Positions 1-31,996 of a DNA stretch of 46,024 nucleotides are shown here, piece by piece. The notes under the pieces are model-generated. The model ran no database searches, had not been told where the DNA came from, and saw nothing but the letters and a program-made list of their open reading frames with translations. The stretch lies in the IMG/VR virus record IMGVR_UViG_2718218133_000007. One strand, 5' to 3'. Origin of the DNA: a virus (Duplodnaviria; Heunggongvirae; Uroviricota; Caudoviricetes). The translations under genes were made by a program, and so were the position numbers. Position 1 is the first letter of the stretch; every line of letters starts with the position of its first letter.

Positions 1-750
1 TCAGTCAATTGTTTTGTTTATTCCATCTGTGACGCCGATTATTTTCTCAAAATAATGAGATGGCGTGACACCATAATAATCTTTAAATGCACATATGAAA
101 TATGAAGTACTGTTATAGCCACATTTCTGGGCTACGACATTGATAGAATAAGAGTTTGAAGTTATGAGTTTTTTTGCATACCTCATCCTAGTATCTCTCA
201 ATATTTCAGTAAATGACGTTCCTTCATCCCTTAATCTTTTTTTTATTAAACTTTCACTCGTATAAATCAATTCCGCAATATCTTTTAAATGCCATTGCCG
301 CTCAATATTAAAACTGATTATTCCAGTAATTTTACAGGTAAATGTATTTATATTTGTTAGTATAAATGAATTTACACTTTCGCGTTTTTTGAACATGGCA
401 AGTAAGGATATACATAGTCTTTCTTTTAACCAAAGGGAGTGTGAGTCTGCTATTTTAATCCCTTCAAACAGAGAAAAAACAAGCGATAATGGAGGTTCCT
501 CTTCAGCAATATAGCCATTCTTATCAAGAGTAAATTTGCCAGGCAGCTCATTATTCACGTCGATAAAAAAGGATAAACATGTTTTCTTATCTATATCAAC
601 AATTCTTAGTTTAGAGGGGCATACTGGTAACTCCCTTCTAATTTTGTCGCTTACAATAAACAATGAATTTTTTTTGAACGAGATAACTCTCCTGTTTATA
701 ATTAAATCAAATGATTGACAGATGAAAACTACGGAGCAAACATAATCCAT
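1..750 (-). CDS. appY: AraC-family transcriptional regulator, AppY-like (complete)
   Basis: 249-aa ORF with C-terminal AraC-type HTH (…[24 protein letters not shown]); matches my recollection of E. coli AppY (249 aa, DLP12 right end); long AT-rich region upstream. Confidence 0.75.
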
Positions 751-2814: not shown

Positions 2815-3084
2815 TTAAGCCCATGTCCTTACATGCTGATCTGTCGTAATGAAAGGCATTAAAGAAGATATGTTTTTACTGCTATCAACAATCCTCATGT
2901 TTACGAAAAAACCACCGCGATCAATGCCCGTACATCTTTCGTTTTCTGGCTCCTCGTAATCAATAATGCAGCCAATAACATCAACAAGAACCCCATTTTC
3001 TTCTTCAAGACTGAACAGGCCACTGTCATATACAATTGCGTTAAACTGTTCTCTGTTATCGAATCGTAATGTTATATCCCGCAT
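2815..3084 (-). CDS. hypothetical small protein between the two fibre genes (89 aa)
   Basis: ORF start overlaps the stf stop (coupling-type arrangement); no family recognised. Confidence 0.35.
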   Translation of the reverse strand: MRDITLRFDNREQFNAIVYDSGLFSLEEENGVLVDVIGCIIDYEEPENERCTGIDRGGFFVNMRIVDSSKNISSLMPFITTDQHVRTWA

Positions 3085-5447
3085 TATACGTATTCCTTAA
3101 GCTGCGTATCTGACAATGCTCTGTTCCAGAAACGGAGGTTTTTTATATGACCATTAAGGTGTCGTAATCCTGTCGTCGTTTGCCCCCCGATTCGAATCAC
3201 GGCTGCTTCACGAATATATTTCCATACTGTTTTGGTTTCAGTGCTTATATGCTTATTTGCAAATGAGCATGTCATGCCGTCAGCCTTAACCCTGAATCCC
3301 ATAACGAGATCTCTTACTCCGCATGACTCATATACACGCCGGTTAGCCCCGCCTATATCGCAATACGAATAACCATCCTGACTGATAGTTCCAGAAGAAC
3401 CAAACCCCATAATAAATGGGCCTCCGGACTGGTGATTTTCTGAATCAATGACACGCGGTGCAGCATTATGAGAAATAAACCAGTTTTTATGGACTTCCAC
3501 CATGAACGTAAAAGGCATGGTATACATATTTTTCATCAGCGGAAATTTACATAAATCTGATGCACGAGTCGCTGGCTCTGTTGTCGTTATGATAAAGGAA
3601 GTTGCACAAGCACCATACTCGAATTGCGGGGTGGTTACTTCTATCCAGTCACCTGTTGCAAAAGCCCCCACTGCTCTGTCGGCTGCAATTTGCAGCTGCG
3701 TACCAACCATTCCCCATTCTGGCAGACATTTCAGTGTTGCCTGAAAATATATCCATCCACTACCAGGGTCGATTTCAAAGTTTGCTGTTAATAGCTGGGC
3801 ATTACCACCCGTAATTTGTAGTTCATGAGTCTGTAATGACAAATAGGCGTCACAAAGGAAAGTGTATCCTTCCGAGTTATACCGTTCAAAACGGATACGT
3901 GCGCGAACATTGAGATCACTTCTTACCCTGAACGACGCGGTAACATACGGACCTTTACTGTACTGATCATCGCCAGTCACATCTATGCCTTTATTACCAG
4001 CAACTGTGCATATATTTCTCCCTGTTGTCGTTCCTGCTATGTCGCTTCCTACTGTGAAACGTCCATATTTAAACTCAAATTCATCTGTTGATGATGTTAC
4101 AGATATACCACCGCTTTTATTCCACGCATCAGGATTAAAACTATTTACGAACATGTTTGTTCGCTGATTCTCTATCAGCAAACCATATTTTTCAAAACGA
4201 GGAACGTTATTCCCTGCCACGGTAATATGCCCGGACTTATCAATATACGTTGCTGATGAAGCGCGGCTAAATTGGCATATGCCATTAACAGGCATTGTTA
4301 TTTCATCACTGCCGATGGTTATTGTTTTATAGCCCGGGGCATACCCTGTTATCGCTTCCAGAGAATCATTCAAGGGTAGCCAGATATCAGGAAGCGGAGG
4401 GACTGAAGCAGGATCAGCGGCATCTTCTGCAATCCGGGCTGCATTCTCTGCTCTTGTTGCGGCTGACGTTGCTTCTATCTCGCTGGCTGCTGCTTTTGTT
4501 TCACTCGTCTTTGCGTTAGTTTCACTGGTTTTTGCAGCTTTTTGGCTATTAGCTGCCGCACTTGCAGAACCAGCTGCGGCACTCTCGCTTTGGGCCGCTG
4601 CATCCTGACTGTTTTTTGCCGCAGTTTCGCTGGCTTTGGCATTCGTTTCGCTGGTCTTCGCTGCCGTCTGGCTGGACTTTGCGTTAGTTTCACTCGTCTT
4701 CGCAGCTTTCTGGCTGTTAGCCGCAGCAGTTGCTGATCCAGCTGCTGAAGTCGCAGAACCGGCTGCTGCGCTCTCGCTTTCAGCTGCTGCAGCCTGGCTA
4801 TTTTTCGCCGCAGTTTCACTGGCTTTGGCATTCGTTTCGCTGGTTTTCGCTGCCGTCTGGCTGGACTTTGCGTTGGTTTCGCTCGTCTTTGCGGCTGTCT
4901 CGCTGTTTTTCGCGTTGGTTTCTGATTTTTTGGCTGCTGTCGCGGAGTTTGCCGATGCAGTCTGCGAGGACGCTGCCGCCTGTGCGCTGTTAGCTGCATT
5001 CGTTTCTGAGGTTTTCGCCGCGTTCTTCGATGATGCCGCTGCAGTTTCGGATTTCTTTGCCACCGCTGCGCTCTGAGAGGCGGCTTCGGCGTTGCGTGCC
5101 GCTTCTTCCACCATTGCCTCAAAACGACGCAATGCCTCCGGCATGACATCATCTTCCGTCATGGCACCGAGAAAATCATTCAGCGTACCTGGTCTGGAAC
5201 CTTCATAGACGGTAATGGTTCCGGCATGTGAAGGCGGAAAACCTTCAACCAGCAGGGTGACGCTGTACTGGCCATACTCAACATCCATGCTGTAACGCCC
5301 GGCTTCATCCGGATTTTCAGAGGCCACCGTGTTCACCAGTACCGTGGTGCTGTTACGCTTTGCCTTCAGTTGAATAGTGCAGTTCTGTATTGGTTTTCCC
5401 GCACCATCTTTCAGCACACCTGAGATTTTTACTGCTGCCATATCCAC
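3084..5447 (-). CDS. stf: side tail fibre protein Stf (lambda Stf-like N-terminus, Ala/Ser/Thr/Lys-rich repeat region, LamG/concanavalin-like C-terminus)
   Basis: 787-aa ORF; N-terminus MAAVKISGVLKDGAGKPIQNCTIQLKA… matches recalled lambda Stf; internal AAKTSETNAKSSQTAAK-type repeats; C-terminal …GHIKNLRFWNRALSDTQLKEYV typical of LamG-like domains; follows lom. Confidence 0.85.
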   Translation of the reverse strand: MDMAAVKISGVLKDGAGKPIQNCTIQLKAKRNSTTVLVNTVASENPDEAGRYSMDVEYGQYSVTLLVEGFPPSHAGTITVYEGSRPGTLNDFLGAMTEDDVMPEALRRFEAMVEEAARNAEAASQSAAVAKKSETAAASSKNAAKTSETNAANSAQAAASSQTASANSATAAKKSETNAKNSETAAKTSETNAKSSQTAAKTSETNAKASETAAKNSQAAAAESESAAAGSATSAAGSATAAANSQKAAKTSETNAKSSQTAAKTSETNAKASETAAKNSQDAAAQSESAAAGSASAAANSQKAAKTSETNAKTSETKAAASEIEATSAATRAENAARIAEDAADPASVPPLPDIWLPLNDSLEAITGYAPGYKTITIGSDEITMPVNGICQFSRASSATYIDKSGHITVAGNNVPRFEKYGLLIENQRTNMFVNSFNPDAWNKSGGISVTSSTDEFEFKYGRFTVGSDIAGTTTGRNICTVAGNKGIDVTGDDQYSKGPYVTASFRVRSDLNVRARIRFERYNSEGYTFLCDAYLSLQTHELQITGGNAQLLTANFEIDPGSGWIYFQATLKCLPEWGMVGTQLQIAADRAVGAFATGDWIEVTTPQFEYGACATSFIITTTEPATRASDLCKFPLMKNMYTMPFTFMVEVHKNWFISHNAAPRVIDSENHQSGGPFIMGFGSSGTISQDGYSYCDIGGANRRVYESCGVRDLVMGFRVKADGMTCSFANKHISTETKTVWKYIREAAVIRIGGQTTTGLRHLNGHIKNLRFWNRALSDTQLKEYV
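4440..5080. repeat. degenerate tandem DNA repeats (period about 189 bp, 63 codons) inside stf
   Basis: Near-identical blocks beginning ~4621 and ~4810 (…cagtttcgctggctttggcattcgtttcgctgg…), with further degenerate copies ~4440-4560; creates spurious alternative-frame ORFs. Confidence 0.6.
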
Positions 5448-17997: not shown

Positions 17998-19023
17998 TTA
18001 CGCCAGTTGAACGGACACGAACTCATCAGGATCAGCCAGCAGCATCAGCGGTGCTGACTGAATCATGGTGAACTCACGCGCCGGATCGCCGGTAGTCACC
18101 CAGTTTTTCGGGTAACGGGCAGAGGCGTTAATGCCTTCGCGCTGTGCGTCCGCATCCTGAATGCAGCCATAGGTGCGCAGACCGCGAGCCTGAGTGTTCC
18201 CCAGCACCATCGTGTTGTCCGGCAGGAAGTTCTTTTTGACGCCGTTTTCCACGTACTGTCCGGAATACACGACGATGGCCACATCGCCATACATTCCCTT
18301 ATAGGACACCGCTTTGCCCAGGTCTTTTACCGCTGTCTCCAGCTCGGAATGAGAGCCGCGACGGGTATCCAGCTTCTCCTTGACGGCTTTGAAGGAACGG
18401 AACAGCGCCCAGCCTTTCGGATCAAACACGATGATATTCACCACACCGCTGGCGTTCAGCGCGTAGGCTTCGATATCGTCGGTCGGGTCATACGTGGACT
18501 TGTCACGCTTGCTCCACTCCGTGCCGCCGGACTGCGTGATGTTATTCGCCTCACTGCGGCCCATATCCACCTCAACCGGATCGAAGGCTTCACCGGTCAT
18601 GGTATATTTGCCCTTAAGCACGGCAGAAACTGCCTGCATCTCTTCGACCTGAGCAATGGCCAGCTCTTCGTCACGCATGTTCTGCATGATGATGCGACGG
18701 CGGCGGTAAGCCGGGTCCGCCAGATTCTGCGGATCTTCATCCGGCAGGCGACGCAGGGTCATCTGCGGATTCACTTCATGCTTGGGTTTGACATATCCCG
18801 GCGTAAATTCAGAGGTGGAGCCGCCACGGGAACGGATAACCTCACCGGAAACAATCGGCGAAACGTACAGCGCCATGTTTACCAGTCCCGGAATTTGTGA
18901 GAGATAGACTTTCTCCGTAGTGAAGGGATAGCTCTCACGGAAAAAGAGACGCAGAAACAGCGGATCAAACTTAAATTTCTGCTCATTTGCCGCCAGCAGC
19001 TGGGCGGTTGTGTACATCGACAT
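17998..19023 (-). CDS. E: major capsid protein E
   Basis: Start at MSMYTTAQLLAANEQKFKFDPLFLRLFF… (341 aa, lambda E length); ORF track extends to 19050. Confidence 0.9.
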   Translation of the reverse strand: MSMYTTAQLLAANEQKFKFDPLFLRLFFRESYPFTTEKVYLSQIPGLVNMALYVSPIVSGEVIRSRGGSTSEFTPGYVKPKHEVNPQMTLRRLPDEDPQNLADPAYRRRRIIMQNMRDEELAIAQVEEMQAVSAVLKGKYTMTGEAFDPVEVDMGRSEANNITQSGGTEWSKRDKSTYDPTDDIEAYALNASGVVNIIVFDPKGWALFRSFKAVKEKLDTRRGSHSELETAVKDLGKAVSYKGMYGDVAIVVYSGQYVENGVKKNFLPDNTMVLGNTQARGLRTYGCIQDADAQREGINASARYPKNWVTTGDPAREFTMIQSAPLMLLADPDEFVSVQLA

Positions 19024-19078
19024 AAAAAAATCCCGTAAAAAAAGCCGCACAGGCGGCCTTTAGTGATGAAGGGTAAAG

Positions 19079-19411
19079 TTAAACGATGCTGATTGCCGTT
19101 CCGGCAAACGCGGTCCGTTTTTTCGTCTCGTCGCTGGCAGCCTCCGGCCAGAGCACATCCTCATAACGGAACGTGCCGGACTTGTAGAACGTCAGCGTGG
19201 TGCTGGTCTGGTCAGCAGCAACCGCAAGAATGCCAACGGCAGCACCGTCGGTGGTGCCATCCCACGCAACCAGCTTACGGCTGGAGGTGTCCAGCATCAG
19301 CGGGGTCATTGCAGGCGCTTTCGCACTCAATCCGCCGGGCGCGGTTGCGGTATGAGCCGGGTCACTGTTGCCCTGCGGCTGGTAATGGGTAAAGGTTTCT
19401 TTGCTCGTCAT
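19079..19411 (-). CDS. D: head decoration protein D
   Basis: [27 protein letters not shown]…, 110 aa from second Met. Confidence 0.9.
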
Positions 19412-27015: not shown

Positions 27016-27509
27016 TGTTGCCCCCACAAACAGACCTCACGCTCAATCTCACGACGAGTCATCAGGCCTTTCCATTGCTTACCGCCAGCGTATGCCCAGC
27101 GACGTAGCTGGTCACATGCGCCCTTGATATCGCCCTGGTTTATTTTGCGAAGAAGAGTAGATGTTCTGAAATTGCCTGCGCCCACGTTATAGACGAACGA
27201 GTAAAGAGCGCCGCGCGTTGTTTCCGGTATATCGACTTTGATGTACGGGTTAATTTGTCTGGCTACCGTGGCAAGGTCTTTATTCAGGAGGGCTTTGCAT
27301 TCTGCTTCGGTATACGTTTTACCGGGAATGATGTCTTTTCCTGTATGCCCGTGACATACAGTCCATACGCCAACGATATCTTTGTATGGTATGTAGCTGA
27401 CACCTTCCAGACCATCGTTACCACTTGGGCCAGTGATTAACACTGATGCTATAGCAATTGCTCCGCCACCAATAGCAGCAGCAACGGCTTTTCGTAATGA
27501 TGGAGGCAT
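27012..27509 (-). CDS. R: SAR endolysin (T4-lysozyme-like, phage 21 R / RrrD type)
   Basis: 165-aa ORF; N-terminal Gly/Ala-rich signal-anchor-release segment ([20 protein letters not shown]), E…D…T catalytic motif region ([25 protein letters not shown]). Confidence 0.9.
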
Positions 27510-27724
27510 TATTCACCTCTCGCAGCCTTGCGCTTATCTTCTTTAATCTTGAAATAAAGGTTTGTCAGGTACGTCAGCAGGCCAAATACCAAGCTACCCA
27601 GCACACCTATTGCTGCCCACTGTGAGGGCGTGACTTTATCGAGCAGCTGTAAAAACCAGTAGCCAGCACTGCCTGCGGAGGTGCCGTAGGCAATGCCCGT
27701 TGTTAACTTATCCATGGATTTCAT
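27509..27724 (-). CDS. S: class II holin / pinholin (S21-like) with dual-start motif
   Basis: 71-aa [29 protein letters not shown]… two TMs; Met1-Lys-Ser-Met4 dual start typical of holin/antiholin pair. Confidence 0.9.
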
Positions 27725-27742: not shown

Positions 27743-27751
27743 AACGGATGG
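27743..27751. repeat. 9-bp target-site duplication (left copy, aacggatgg) of the IS1 insertion
   Basis: Identical 9-mer found immediately flanking both IS1 ends; IS1 is known to make 8-9-bp duplications. Confidence 0.65.
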
Positions 27752-27806
27752 GGTAATGCTGCCAACTTACTGATTTAGTGTATGATGGTGATTTTAAGGT
27801 GCTTGC

Positions 27807-28082
27807 GTGGCTTCCATTTCCATCAGATGTCCTTCCTGCTCCGCTACTGAAGGCGTGGTGCGTAACGGCAAAAGCACTGCCGGACATCAGCGCTATCTCT
27901 GCTCTCATTGCCGTAAAACATGGCAACTGCAGTTCACTTACACCGCTTCTCAACCCGGTACGCACCAGAAAATCATTGATATGGCCATGAATGGCGTTGG
28001 ATGCCGGGCAACTGCCCGCATTATGGGCGTTGGTCTCAACACGATTTTACGTCACTTAAAAAACTCAGGCCGCAGTCGGTAA
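27807..28082 (+). CDS. insA: IS1 InsA
   Basis: 91-aa [43 protein letters not shown]… matches recalled IS1 InsA (zinc finger + HTH). Confidence 0.9.
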
Positions 28083-28504
28083 CCTCGCGCATACAGCCGG
28101 GCAGTGACGTCATCGTCTGCGCGGAAATGGGCGAACAGTGGGGCTATGTCGGGGCTAAATCGCGCCAGCGCTGGCTGTTTTACGCGTATGACAGGCTCCG
28201 GAAGACGGTTGTTGCGCACGTATTCGGTGAACGCACGATGGCGACGCTGGGGCGTCTTATGAGCCTGCTGTCACCCTTTGACGTGGTGATATGGATGACG
28301 GATGGCTGGCCGCTGTATGAATCCCGCCTGAAGGGAAAGCTGCACGTAATCAGCAAGCGATATACGCAGCGAATTGAGCGGCATAACCTGAATCTGAGGC
28401 AGCACCTGGCACGGCTGGGACGGAAGTCGCTGTCGTTCTCAAAATCGGTGGAGCTGCATGACAAAGTCATCGGGCATTATCTGAACATAAAACACTATCA
28501 ATAA
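28001..28504 (+). CDS. insB: IS1 InsB (expressed as InsAB' transposase by -1 frameshift)
   Basis: 167-aa ORF matching recalled InsB; overlaps insA in -1 frame across the A6C motif (~28058-28064). Confidence 0.9.
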
Positions 28505-28519
28505 GTTGGAGTCATTACC

Positions 28520-28528
28520 AACGGATGG
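28520..28528. repeat. 9-bp target-site duplication (right copy, aacggatgg) of the IS1 insertion
   Basis: See left copy. Confidence 0.65.
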
Positions 28529-28688: not shown

Positions 28689-29429
28689 TTACATCATGTC
28701 TTTTTCTAAAAAAAATCTTGATGAATATTGATGGGGAGGAACACCAAAATACCTTCTGAAAACACTTACAAAATATGACGTGTTTTCATAACTGCATATC
28801 TCAGCAACTTTTCCAACAGAATATAAATTGTAGCTTAATAACCTTTCCGCCATCACCATTCGCTCTTCAAGAATTAACTTACTAAATGATAAGCCTTCGT
28901 GCTTTAATTTTCTTTTTAACAGACTTTCACTCAGATACAGTCTTGAAGATATATCACAAAGTCTCCATGCTGCAGATATATCCGTGTGAATAATAGCCTT
29001 AACTTTACTTCCTAAACTATTAAGACATCCAAATAAAAAACTTTGCACTATTTTCTCTGAAGATAAGATAGCAAGACATGCAAGTGATATTTGATTTCTA
29101 ACAAAATCCACAGTTCTGCCATCACAATTCAAGCATGCAATCAAGTTCTTTAACAATGAAAAATCTTCACATTCCACCATCAAGTATGCCGGATAAAACC
29201 TTCTTACAGAAAAAGGTGAGAGTGTGTTGCTTTTAAAGAAATCATTAACTGTTTTTTCTTCAACATCTACGATCATTACATGATCTATATTTGATGAAAA
29301 AAAATCTTTTAAATTGTAATCAATGAGAACAGCACTTCCTTTTTTAAACAAAATATCTTCTTTACCAATTCGGACATCAAACGAGTTCAACACCAAAATG
29401 ATAGAACATATGTATAGCATATTATCCAC
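28689..29429 (-). CDS. AraC-family transcriptional regulator (AppY/GadX-like paralogue), cargo gene
   Basis: 246-aa ORF; C-terminal AraC HTH (…YENTSYFVSVFRRYFGVPPHQY); N-terminal domain shows AppY-like pattern (ILFKKGSAVLID vs [13 protein letters not shown]); AT-rich own upstream region; hairpin+T-tract downstream. Confidence 0.8.
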   Translation of the reverse strand: MDNMLYICSIILVLNSFDVRIGKEDILFKKGSAVLIDYNLKDFFSSNIDHVMIVDVEEKTVNDFFKSNTLSPFSVRRFYPAYLMVECEDFSLLKNLIACLNCDGRTVDFVRNQISLACLAILSSEKIVQSFLFGCLNSLGSKVKAIIHTDISAAWRLCDISSRLYLSESLLKRKLKHEGLSFSKLILEERMVMAERLLSYNLYSVGKVAEICSYENTSYFVSVFRRYFGVPPHQYSSRFFLEKDMM

Positions 29430-29771
29430 CTGATATCATTGGGGTTACACCAGGTAAGTATAGGTGGAAAATCAATATTCGCCAGTTCAACAATAAGGAA
29501 AATTTCATTGCATCACAAGTATAAAATTATGTATTTAACTCACAAAGACAAATTATTAAACCAATCTGTTATATTATATATAGCTGCGTGGAATCATAAT
29601 ATTATATATTTTGACTGGCATGTTTACTAACTTTAAGTTGCATCTCAATTGTTTCTTCAGCGTAAACAGAGTTTTTATACAAACTGACACTCTGGGTATC
29701 ATAGTGTAGTTTTTACGATTGTAAATATCCTGCATGCAGGAACTCATCCTTTTGGATGATATCGCATACAA

Positions 29772-30731
29772 TTAATTTACCATCAGTCTTAGAGCCAGTT
29801 CGTCCGGATAGGGATCGAAGTAATTCTGTGTAAGCAAGTAATCATTAGGATACTCACCCAGATAATGCTTCAGCAGAGTCAACGGCGCAAGAAGAGGTAA
29901 TGTGCCAGAACGATAGTTAAGTATAACCTCGCTCAACTCTTTACGCTGGCGTGTACTTAAGTAGTTACTAAAATACCCCTGTATATGCATCAGCACATTC
30001 GTGTGATTTTTACGTGATGCAGGTTTTCTGAGAATCGCCATCAGCTTATCACGATACACCTCAAAGTATGATTCAAGGTCCGCCCACTCGTGTATTGCAG
30101 CCACAAATGGTCCCATATCTTTATAGCCTGCCTGACTATGCGCCAACAACTGAAGCTTATAACGACTATGAAAAGCTAATAACTCTCTTCTTGATAATTT
30201 CTCCTTGTAAAGGTGATTGAGCTCATGCAAAGCAAAAACTCTTTCAACAAAATTCTCACGAAGCACTGGATCATGTAATCGCCCATCCTCTTCAACCGGT
30301 AGCCAGGAAAACTTTTCCATCAAAGTGCTCGTAAATAGTCCCACTCCATCTTTACGACCTCGATTACCATTTTCATCATAGACACGCACGCGCTCCATGC
30401 CACAGCTGGGAGATTTAGCACAAACCACAAACCCCGATACATCCTTTAATTTGTCCATATAAGAACGACTAAACTCTGTCATTCTCTCTGTCACATCCTC
30501 ATTCTGGTCGTGGCTGAAACACATCCGTATATTTCCTTGCGTCGAGCGCACAAGACGTAGAGCAGGACGCGGAACTGGCAGCCCTATAGCCATTTCCGGA
30601 CATACTGGTCTGAATGTTACCCATTCCACTAATTTGTCCATTAAAAAGTCAGCTCTTTTGTGACCACCATCAAAACGAACAGCAGAACCGGCCAAACAAC
30701 CGCTGATTCCAATCACAGGTTTTTTTATCAT
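29772..30731 (-). CDS. YbgA-like protein (DUF523 N-terminal domain + DUF1722 C-terminal domain)
   Basis: 319-aa ORF; conserved YbgA-family blocks recalled from E. coli YbgA: IGISGCLAG…VRFDGGHK, FRPVCPEMAIGLPVPRP, KSPSCGMERV, LPVEEDGRL…LRENF, HSRYKLQLLAH, LPLLAPLTLLKHY. Confidence 0.75.
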   Translation of the reverse strand: MIKKPVIGISGCLAGSAVRFDGGHKRADFLMDKLVEWVTFRPVCPEMAIGLPVPRPALRLVRSTQGNIRMCFSHDQNEDVTERMTEFSRSYMDKLKDVSGFVVCAKSPSCGMERVRVYDENGNRGRKDGVGLFTSTLMEKFSWLPVEEDGRLHDPVLRENFVERVFALHELNHLYKEKLSRRELLAFHSRYKLQLLAHSQAGYKDMGPFVAAIHEWADLESYFEVYRDKLMAILRKPASRKNHTNVLMHIQGYFSNYLSTRQRKELSEVILNYRSGTLPLLAPLTLLKHYLGEYPNDYLLTQNYFDPYPDELALRLMVN

Positions 30732-30923: not shown

Positions 30924-31448
30924 ATGAAGTTATGGCCTGTGTTGACTGGCATTGCACTCTCTTTCACTCTTATAGCATGTAAGGCCCCGACACCACCTAA
31001 AGGTGTGCAGCCGATTACAAATTTTGACGCCAACCGCTACCTCGGAAAATGGTATGAAATAGCTCGCCTCGAGAACCGGTTCGAACGTGGTCTGGAACAG
31101 GTCAGCGCTACTTATGGAAAACGGAACGACGGAGGGATTCGTGTACTTAACCGTGGATACGATCCAACGAAAAATAAATGGAGCGAGAGCGAAGGTAAAG
31201 CATACTTTACTGGAGATACTAAAACTGCAGCATTGAAGGTTTCGTTTTTTGGCCCCTTCTATGGTGGCTATAATGTAATCAAACTGGATGATGAGTATAA
31301 GTATGCTCTTGTCAGTGGTCCGAACAGAGAATACCTATGGATTCTGGCAAGGACCCCAACTATTCCAGATAAAGTAAAAGCAGACTATGTGCGAACCGCT
31401 CAAAAGTTGGGATTCAATGTCAATGAATTATTATGGGTTAAACAATAA
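30924..31448 (+). CDS. Blc-like bacterial lipocalin, outer-membrane lipoprotein
   Basis: 174-aa ORF with lipobox (LIAC), lipocalin motifs GKWYEIARLENRFERGLEQVSATY and KVSFFGPFYGGYNVI…YLWILARTP matching recalled Blc; only plus-strand gene inside the late region. Confidence 0.8.
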   Translation: MKLWPVLTGIALSFTLIACKAPTPPKGVQPITNFDANRYLGKWYEIARLENRFERGLEQVSATYGKRNDGGIRVLNRGYDPTKNKWSESEGKAYFTGDTKTAALKVSFFGPFYGGYNVIKLDDEYKYALVSGPNREYLWILARTPTIPDKVKADYVRTAQKLGFNVNELLWVKQ

Positions 31449-31480: not shown

Positions 31481-31505
31481 AAACCAGCCTTTGGGGAGGC
31501 TGGCT
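31481..31505. terminator. strong hairpin with A-tract/T-tract (bidirectional terminator; candidate tR' for the late promoter and terminator for blc-like)
   Basis: aaaaaaa-ccagcct-ttgggg-aggctgg; on the minus strand the stem is followed by ttttttt, ~100 nt downstream of Q. Confidence 0.55.
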
Positions 31506-31603: not shown

Positions 31604-31996
31604 TTATTTCGAACAATCAGCATCCATCTCCAATCGGAGATCCAACACCATCAGCATACCCTCCACTACGCCCTCAGCTTTCTGAAGCATCCTGCCAACC
31701 CAACAATCAGATCGCCCATGCTTACGTGCAAGCGCCATAAAAGTCATGCCGCCGACATAATAGTCCACCAATAAATCATGCAAATCGCTGTTGTTCTTTT
31801 TCAGACGGGCCATGCACCCGCAAATGATCATCGCGTCATCGTCACAACATTGTGGGCGAGATTTTACTTTTGAAGTAATTAATCCCTTAAAACCGGCGGC
31901 AATGGACGACCAGGTCACATCTTCATGATTATTAGCCGCCCACGCTCCCCAACGCTCAAGAACCATCTGAATATCACGCATCAACTTACTCCACAA
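31604..31996 (-). CDS. Q: late-gene antiterminator Q (QuuD / phage 82-type)
   Basis: …[34 protein letters not shown]…[16 protein letters not shown]… resembles recalled QuuD; position downstream of rusA and upstream of late region; true start may be an internal Met. Confidence 0.8.

Follow-up and report, generated by a model that had tools for sequence, protein, structure and literature searches.

A putative PatE/Psr-type AraC regulator among the cargo genes of an argU-site lambdoid prophage of Escherichia coli

Background

AppY, PatE and PsrA/PsrB are established cases of phages plugging into the acid-resistance and virulence circuitry of their hosts. PatE and PsrB activate gadE and hdeA, PsrA raises GadE/YhiF and AppY activates gadE directly (PMC10877973, PMC4456613, PMC10057817). 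Besides raising acid resistance, PatE and PsrA/B repress the type III secretion system (T3SS) through GadE/YhiF in strains positive for the enterocyte effacement locus (LEE) (PMC10877973). Here, we describe a further AraC-family regulator gene, located between the antiterminator gene Q and the holin gene S (essD) in the viral sequence IMGVR_UViG_2718218133_000007. The whole stretch of DNA that was analyzed (46,024 nucleotides) is referred to as the window; it holds a nearly complete prophage of the lambdoid type, which occupies the argU (DLP12) site in Escherichia coli, and the 2.6-kb stretch around the regulator gene is 100% identical to the sequence of strain FUJ80154 (NZ_AP024687.1). An initial annotation of the window had taken the gene for an AppY-type paralogue of an appY-like gene in the same prophage, and had proposed that two such regulators in one element suggest layered control of the host. 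As a whole, this interpretation is partly supported by the results presented below.

The regulator can be compared with several described proteins. Like it, PatE is a prophage-borne AraC-like protein of about 245 amino acids (aa) assigned to the PHROG family phrog_1450, and the N-terminal domains of the two are clearly homologous. PatE differs in location, as it is encoded after tail-fibre genes, whereas the regulator shares the Q-S interval with ybgA and lipocalin genes. The prophage-encoded secretion regulators of enterohaemorrhagic E. coli (EHEC), PsrA and PsrB, resemble the regulator in their predicted clade and architecture and, for PsrA, in occupying the niche of a cargo gene, or moron, after Q. 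In LEE-positive strains, however, the Psr genes are linked to Pch regulators and to loci for T3SS effectors, and PsrA is just 39% identical to the regulator, the matches to which come from isolates from humans, animals and the environment. Six additional Psr homologs were reportedly described by Tree et al. in 2011. AppY, also an activator of gadE, is prophage-borne, AT-rich and two-domain and aligns collinearly with the regulator throughout, but it is the sister of GadW and its gene is tail-fibre-distal rather than in the Q-S interval. The proteins GadW and YdeO have the same type of N-terminal domain and the same DNA-binding domain as the regulator, but they are chromosomal and only 33% and 31% identical to it. 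Finally, the AraC-type virulence regulators Rns, CsvR and ToxT, for which structures have been solved, share the fold predicted for the regulator at 17-20% sequence identity.

Results and Discussion

Relatedness of the regulator to PatE, PsrA and AppY

Proteins used for comparison included YbcM, EnvY, YdeO, GadW, GadX and AdiY from strain K-12 and ECs_0287 and PsrA from strain Sakai. The gene names patE and psrA follow PMC10877973 and PMC13502914, and the gene used here as psrA is ecs1087, located in Sakai prophage Sp4 (PMC13502914). ECs_0287 was taken to be PatE because it is the sole AraC gene of Sakai prophage Sp1, which is CP-933H/OI-8.

Among these proteins, the regulator is most similar to the putative PatE, followed by PsrA (Table 1), and homology to both extends over the full length of the protein, N-terminal domain included. 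In the region of the first recognition helix, 16 of 17 residues are identical to those of PatE. The regulator covers the whole phrog_1450 profile with a score of 353 bits (E=2.4e-105), and the lowest score of the relatives tested is that of AppY. In a neighbour-joining distance tree (19 taxa, 100 bootstraps, support counted as unrooted splits), the regulator and its own alleles form a clade in 98/100 replicates, which joins the PatE clade in 100/100 and, with PsrA added, is recovered in 98/100. This group is monophyletic to the exclusion of GadW, YdeO, GadX and AppY. When the N-terminal domain was used in a phmmer search of 1.84 billion representatives, only its own clade, the PatE and PsrA clades and one YdeO-like protein were recovered. 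The best full-length NCBIfam match is to the YdeO model, but its score of 123 bits falls short of the equivalog cut-off of 348, as does that of the GadX model (82 bits, cut-off 500). By these measures, the regulator is a predicted member of the PatE/Psr clade (phrog_1450), and its closest characterized relative is the putative PatE. The initial annotation had named prophage PatE/Psr regulators as comparators, and it is with these, rather than with AppY, that the protein groups.

The similarity to AppY noted at the outset is nevertheless genuine. In a BLASTP alignment that is collinear from residue 1, the two proteins are 31% identical across 233 residues (E=1e-40). When the N-terminal 130 residues were aligned separately, the Smith-Waterman score was 111, as compared to 31 ± 5.6 in 500 shuffles, none of which (0/500) reached it. 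Because this z-score of 14.4 was obtained with the DNA-binding domain removed, the similarity exceeds that of the generic AraC helix-turn-helix (HTH) region, and the recognizable N-terminal blocks that the two proteins had been said to share were borne out. GadW and YdeO are equally close to the regulator, AppY pairs with GadW in 100/100 bootstrap replicates, and AppY never pairs with the regulator clade (0/100). By the shuffle test, neither GadX (z=0.3) nor YbcM (z=-0.6) has N-terminal similarity to the regulator, and GadX, AdiY and YbcM match its C-terminal part only; EnvY is 29% identical over 215 aa, with weak N-terminal similarity (z=3.3). A specific orthologous or paralogous relationship with AppY is not supported, given the 31% identity (like that of GadW and YdeO) and the bootstrap results; AppY is best described from these alignments as a cousin as distant as the chromosomal GadW and YdeO.

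Two observations concern psrA itself. Although two reviews equate psrA with Z1789 of OI-50, tblastn detected no AraC-like sequence in either Sakai Sp6 or the 1.625-1.675 Mb region of EDL933. For the psrA gene at 18677-19390 of the Sakai locus (L009), the annotation, which gives a protein of 195 aa starting from 18803, appears to be N-terminally truncated: an upstream ATG yields an open reading frame (ORF) of 237 aa that regains the M-x-x-V-C-S-V N-terminus common to the whole family.

Table 1. Similarity of the regulator to PatE/Psr proteins, AppY and chromosomal relatives
Protein	Identity to regulator	Identity, DNA-binding domain	N-terminal z-score	phrog_1450 score (bits)
PatE (inferred)	53% over 235 aa	71%	39.5	321
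PsrA	39% over 235 aa	56%	18.5	317
GadW	33%	44%	16.6	194
AppY	31%	39%	14.4	162
YdeO	31%	42%	14.9	182

Coding sequence, start codon and predicted fold

The gene was confirmed to be real and intact and to encode an AraC-family regulator. Its C-terminal DNA-binding domain of approximately 100 aa contains the two HTH motifs of the AraC/XylS family, with Pfam scores above the cut-offs for both HTH_18 (50.1 bits, cut-off 33.6, E=3.5e-13) and HTH_AraC (40.6 bits, cut-off 26.6, E=2.6e-10). The mechanically called ORF at 28689..29429 (minus strand), from which the initial annotation derived a length of 246 aa, is present and begins at a GTG at 29429. The true start, however, is almost certainly the ATG at 29420, a correction of 9 nt that gives a predicted protein of 243 aa, for the following reasons. 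First, RefSeq annotates a 243 aa protein (WP_022645309.1). Second, a Shine-Dalgarno sequence, AGGTGG, is found 5 nt upstream of this ATG. Third, all of the alleles and homologues (AppY, GadW, YdeO, PatE and PsrA) start at the aligned methionine. Fourth, the GTG at 29429 falls within the Shine-Dalgarno sequence itself.

An AlphaFold2 model of the regulator (mean predicted local distance difference test score 86.9, predicted template modelling score 0.82) consists of an N-terminal beta-sandwich, helices and a double HTH. The best full-length Foldseek matches were CsvR, Rns and ToxT (probability 1.00, E=4.5e-10 to 1e-6, approximately 250 aligned columns; top hits at about 1e-9 to 1e-10), with a global TM-score of only about 0.42 owing to domain orientation. 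The structure of the GadX DNA-binding domain (3mkl) superposes on the model at a root-mean-square deviation of 1.3 Å. The predicted fold is thus a two-domain one like that of Rns, ToxT and CsvR, with a beta-sandwich that a helical linker joins to the double HTH at the C-terminus.

The Q-S cassette and its distribution

As had been stated in the initial annotation, the gene is located in the island between Q and the holin gene essD. The gene order on the minus strand is Q, a terminator-like hairpin, the lipocalin gene (on the opposite strand), the YbgA gene, a 351-bp spacer, the regulator, IS1 and essD-rrrD-Rz (Table 2). The Q-S interval is a classical site of lysogenic-conversion cargo. In Sakai Sp4, psrA is likewise found directly downstream of Q, and in K-12 DLP12 the same late module carries nmpC as its cargo; PatE-type genes are instead found after the tail-fibre genes, as in Sp1 and mEp332. 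The hairpin following Q is a candidate for tR', the site of Q antitermination, and this assignment, which is drawn from lambda biology, would place the cassette within the late transcription unit.

For comparison, 80 related IMG/VR loci were collected. The full order Q-lipocalin-YbgA-AraC-holin, from Q to RrrD, was found in 68 of these, most of the others being cut by contig ends, and both the cassette order and a YbgA gene co-occurring with the regulator were found in at least 74/80. The same cassette is carried by a Rac-like prophage (99.6% nucleotide identity), by a Qin-like prophage, by a remnant adjoining ilvA and by two isolated phages, IdasGreatGrand and Lambda_ev203 (98% and 82% protein identity, respectively). 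The regulator is therefore found as cargo of lambdoid prophages and phages, on the evidence of its Q-S location, the isolated phages and the 80 IMG/VR loci. Many phages show tight linkage of the YbgA and lipocalin genes to the regulator, and the PHROG families to which this YbgA-family and lipocalin cargo belongs (phrog_3275 and phrog_2809) are of unknown function.

In the stretches examined, no appY gene was found near the cassette in the phages, the Rac-like and Qin-like prophages or the ilvA remnant. Because the cassette is found without appY, its sharing of a prophage with appY in the window looks incidental, and their co-residence would be a by-product of prophage mosaicism rather than a two-tier circuit. 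Furthermore, these are trans-acting factors, so that residence in one element carries no mechanistic weight.

An insertion sequence separates the regulator from the lysis genes. The IS1 copy is flanked by a 9-bp target duplication, AACGGATGG, at 27743-27751 and 28520-28528, and its insertion site is 169 nt past the regulator stop codon and 27 bp ahead of the start codon of essD. None of the 80 related IMG/VR loci contains this IS1. By this comparison, it is a secondary, lineage-specific insertion; as it separates the lysis genes from the late promoter region, lysis by this particular prophage may be impaired.

Table 2. Features of the regulator locus and of the appY end of the window (positions in the window)
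Feature	Position	Strand	Basis or description
appY, an AraC regulator gene sharing the att-bounded element with the regulator	1..750	-	100% identical to K-12 AppY
Holin gene essD (S), downstream limit of the Q-S island	27509..27724	-	RefSeq
IS1, 768 bp	27752..28519	+	Junctions mapped against an IS-free relative
Regulator coding sequence, 243 aa, AraC family, predicted PatE/Psr clade	28689..29420	-	ORF, RefSeq start, Pfam, phrog_1450
Regulator DNA-binding domain, residues 136-235	28716..29015	-	
Regulator N-terminal domain, residues 1-130	29031..29420	-	
T8 homopolymer, codons 39-42 (GAT TTT TTT TCA), in frame in the window	29297..29304	-	A8 on the plus strand
ybgA-AraC intergenic region and long leader	29421..29771	-	AT-rich, 31.6% GC
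Shine-Dalgarno sequence AGGTGG	29426..29431	-	Sequence; invariant in six aligned copies spanning four diverged allele types
Candidate sigma-70-like promoter, TTTACA-16-TATGAT, about 270 nt upstream of the ATG	29698..29725	-	Consensus scan, 10/12 matches
YbgA-family gene, TudS/DUF523 (2-thiouracil desulfurase) and DUF1722 fusion, upstream partner	29772..30731	-	Pfam, RefSeq
Lipocalin gene, Blc-like, cassette partner	30924..31448	+	Pfam Lipocalin_2 (E=7e-44), RefSeq
Candidate tR': strong hairpin resembling an intrinsic terminator, with a T run after it, about 100 nt downstream of Q	31482..31505	-	Scan
Antiterminator gene Q, heads the late region	31604..31981	-	RefSeq; phrog_79 Q-like (E=1e-50)

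The argU-site element

In the genome identical to the source, the 47.7-kb element that encloses ompT, appY and the entire phage is delimited by a direct repeat, 47 bp long, of the argU 3' end. One copy of the repeat adjoins intD and the other lies between envY and ompT, and both of these attachment (att) sites are outside of the window. K-12 shares the 47-bp repeat and has DLP12 annotated there over the same interval. The appY-like gene of the initial annotation is AppY itself, and it was correctly observed that two AraC regulators reside in one prophage, since both genes are inside the att-bounded element. The gene for EnvY, a third AraC regulator, is located just beyond attR. That K-12 DLP12 has two AraC regulators, AppY and YbcM, has already been noted (PMC10057817); the RefSeq annotation of the window prophage does not include ybcM. 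The window strain and K-12 have the argU-site element in common, and appY belongs to its tail-fibre-distal end. While the window has a GC content of 49.8%, that of the regulator gene is 31.4%, and appY is also approximately 31% GC. No matches were obtained when the whole window was scanned for Rfam families and tRNAs.

Positions 3084-5447 (minus strand) contain an intact 787-aa ORF with a prophage tail-fibre N-terminal domain (PF08400, E=3e-66), where RefSeq has only a partial pseudogene covering the first ~120 codons (5075-5441), with about 2 kb left unannotated. Matches with 31.3% identity to the regulator over the same span as AppY were found in phages PP925833.1 (Kati) and PV340576.1 (PhiR68_2), which suggests that these viable phages still carry appY.

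Prevalence, selection and frameshifts in the T8 tract

The regulator gene was detected in 1080 of 5426 complete E. coli genomes (~20%), in 497 of them at ≥99% nucleotide identity, with further allele classes of about 90% and 85%; a PatE-type gene is rarer, being found in 658 of the 5426. At least 1000 contigs encode the exact protein. Four allele types with up to 19% protein divergence all retain the full ORF, and dN/dS (the ratio of nonsynonymous to synonymous substitution rates) among five intact copies representing these diverged types is 0.20-0.26, with dS up to 0.6. These values indicate that the gene is under purifying selection, to judge from the copies compared. A scan of GTDB species representatives is uninformative on distribution, as it returned just three loci, of which one is an evident contaminant and two match in the HTH region only. 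In a public metagenome-assembled genome assigned to 'Candidatus Nanosynbacter', a 98% identical copy of the gene is found on a 3.2-kb contig (JARKOR010000151.1, locus L017); this contig is almost certainly a mis-binned or contaminating fragment of an E. coli prophage.

Some copies of the gene are disrupted in the T8 homopolymer near its 5' end. Among 62 close IMG/VR copies (≥97% identical), the tract is T8 in 52, T7 in seven, T6 in two and T9 in one, and another T7 copy was found in a Logan contig. Nine of the out-of-frame copies are on seven private haplotypes, none of which is shared with in-frame copies (the tenth, L080, was not captured), and two pairs of out-of-frame copies share both haplotype and tract length. 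As private haplotypes and shared pairs are signs of real events rather than sequencing error, these data suggest repeated inactivation at the T8 run, which may be either a hot spot for mutation or a switch that works by slippage. The 237-aa allele has an interrupted tract, and maintenance of the tract by selection is therefore not indicated. Shortened forms of the protein are recorded on dozens of contigs, such as a 178-aa form on 57 contigs. The prospect raised in the initial annotation, that the gene might be a pseudogene in related strains, thus applies to a minority of copies (10/62 frameshifted); most, including that of the window, are intact, and dN/dS is about 0.2.

Regulatory signals upstream of the gene

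The sigma-70-like sequence at 29698..29725 is a candidate for the moron's own promoter. The block TTTACAATCGTAAAAACT.C.CTATGAT is kept in all aligned copies, and its flanks diverge. In the 29421-29771 region upstream of the regulator, no exact match to the AppY motif ATGSCWGM was found. In the minimum-free-energy fold of the leader (29431-29476, minus strand), an invariant CCACCU pairs with the AGGUGG of the Shine-Dalgarno sequence; a hairpin that sequesters the ribosome-binding site is nevertheless unsupported, as the fold is no stabler than those of shuffled sequences (z=-0.55) and, with both arms invariant, there is no covariation.

Proposed function and alternatives

We propose that the regulator is a prophage cargo transcription factor of the PatE/Psr clade that most likely activates the glutamate-dependent acid resistance (GAD/AR2) regulon in the lysogen, a reading to which we assign a probability of roughly 0.6. 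This role is proposed because PatE, PsrA/PsrB and, more distantly, AppY are reported to act in this way. In a lysogen, the gene would be transcribed from its own conserved sigma-70-type promoter, approximately 270 nt upstream, and would probably be silenced by H-NS until a stress signal is received, in the manner known for appY; in the lytic cycle, it would also be read through by Q-modified RNA polymerase. The protein would bind AT-rich host promoters, most likely activating AR2 via gadE and hdeA, and it would act in parallel with the chromosomal regulators GadW, GadX and YdeO and with AppY.

Several observations weigh against this proposal. The region of the second recognition helix is just 65% identical to that of PatE, and the CGY motif conserved in the family is CSY in the regulator, so its targets may differ from those of PatE. 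Likewise, its N-terminal domain is only 38% identical to that of PatE, meaning that the sensed signal may differ. The divergent N-terminal domain and second HTH therefore leave room for another signal and a partly different regulon. The equation of ECs_0287 with PatE (Z0321) was made by synteny and not with the sequence of the original paper. As for expression, the promoter-like matches in the region are not in excess of those expected (12 found vs 10.3 in shuffles). The frameshifts in ~16% of close copies (10/62) imply that the gene is dispensable in some lineages, a local regulatory role could instead be indicated by its close association with ybgA and the lipocalin gene, and literature searches for the protein or the cassette found nothing relevant.

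A local role, in which the regulator would control the YbgA and lipocalin genes of its cassette, possibly in response to a lipid-like ligand and without reprogramming the host, seems unlikely to us. AraC-family proteins frequently control neighbouring genes, the cassette order is maintained in at least 74/80 IMG/VR loci across four allele classes and different chromosomal sites, and the predicted fold resembles those of the fatty-acid-binding regulators Rns and ToxT. The nearest relatives, however, do not have these neighbours (PatE is found after tail fibres, and PsrA beside a CAAX protease and tRNA genes) and it is on gadE and hdeA of the host that PatE and PsrA are reported to act, while the linkage is explicable as that of one mosaic module inherited with a particular Q allele. 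Somewhat less likely again is the layered circuit of the initial annotation, with the regulator as a specific AppY paralogue and both proteins governing host acid-resistance and secretion regulons. Although the full-length collinear homology to AppY, the enclosure of both genes in one att-bounded element, their shared GC content of about 31% and the convergence of AppY and the PatE/Psr proteins on gadE are all compatible with it, the tree pairs AppY with GadW, GadW and YdeO are as close to the regulator as AppY is, the cassette is a mobile mosaic module that occurs without appY in the stretches examined, and no exact AppY motif precedes the gene. A more elaborate reading, which we regard as highly improbable, would make the lipocalin, YbgA (TudS-like) and AraC genes one phase-variable, ligand-gated, phage-borne rewiring unit distinct from PatE/Psr, in which the AraC protein would sense a lipid- or fatty-acid-like ligand via a pocket of the Rns/ToxT type and regulate host stress genes along with its own cassette, with the T8 tract as an on/off slippage switch.

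The remaining explanations dispense with host regulation altogether. That the gene is a functionless, decaying passenger is improbable: the T6, T7 and T9 frameshifts in 10/62 close copies, on private haplotypes, and the shortened forms on dozens of contigs are consistent with decay, but the window copy has an intact T8 frame, dN/dS is 0.20-0.26, four allele types keep the full ORF and the exact protein is found on at least 1000 contigs. We consider a regulator of the phage life cycle, one that modulates, for example, the late or lysis genes, to be the least probable. Such a function would fit the place of the gene in the late operon immediately upstream of the holin gene, where it is flanked by S and by Q with its tR'-like terminator and is oriented like the late genes, but the Q-S interval is a cargo site that holds psrA and tRNA genes in Sakai Sp4, the same late module exists with other cargo (nmpC in K-12 DLP12), the characterized relatives act on host genes and frameshifted copies are found within otherwise conserved cassettes.

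Conclusions

The analysis corrects the classification of the regulator, which is assigned by sequence comparison to the PatE/Psr clade, and its start codon, and it finds that co-residence with appY is no evidence of a designed circuit. The regulator represents an unstudied branch of the PatE/Psr family that is commoner than PatE, and many of its carriers are human isolates. Viable temperate phages carry the gene and can move it between strains. If the regulator does activate gadE in the way of its relatives, acid tolerance in non-EHEC E. coli would have a further input that is mobile by horizontal transfer.

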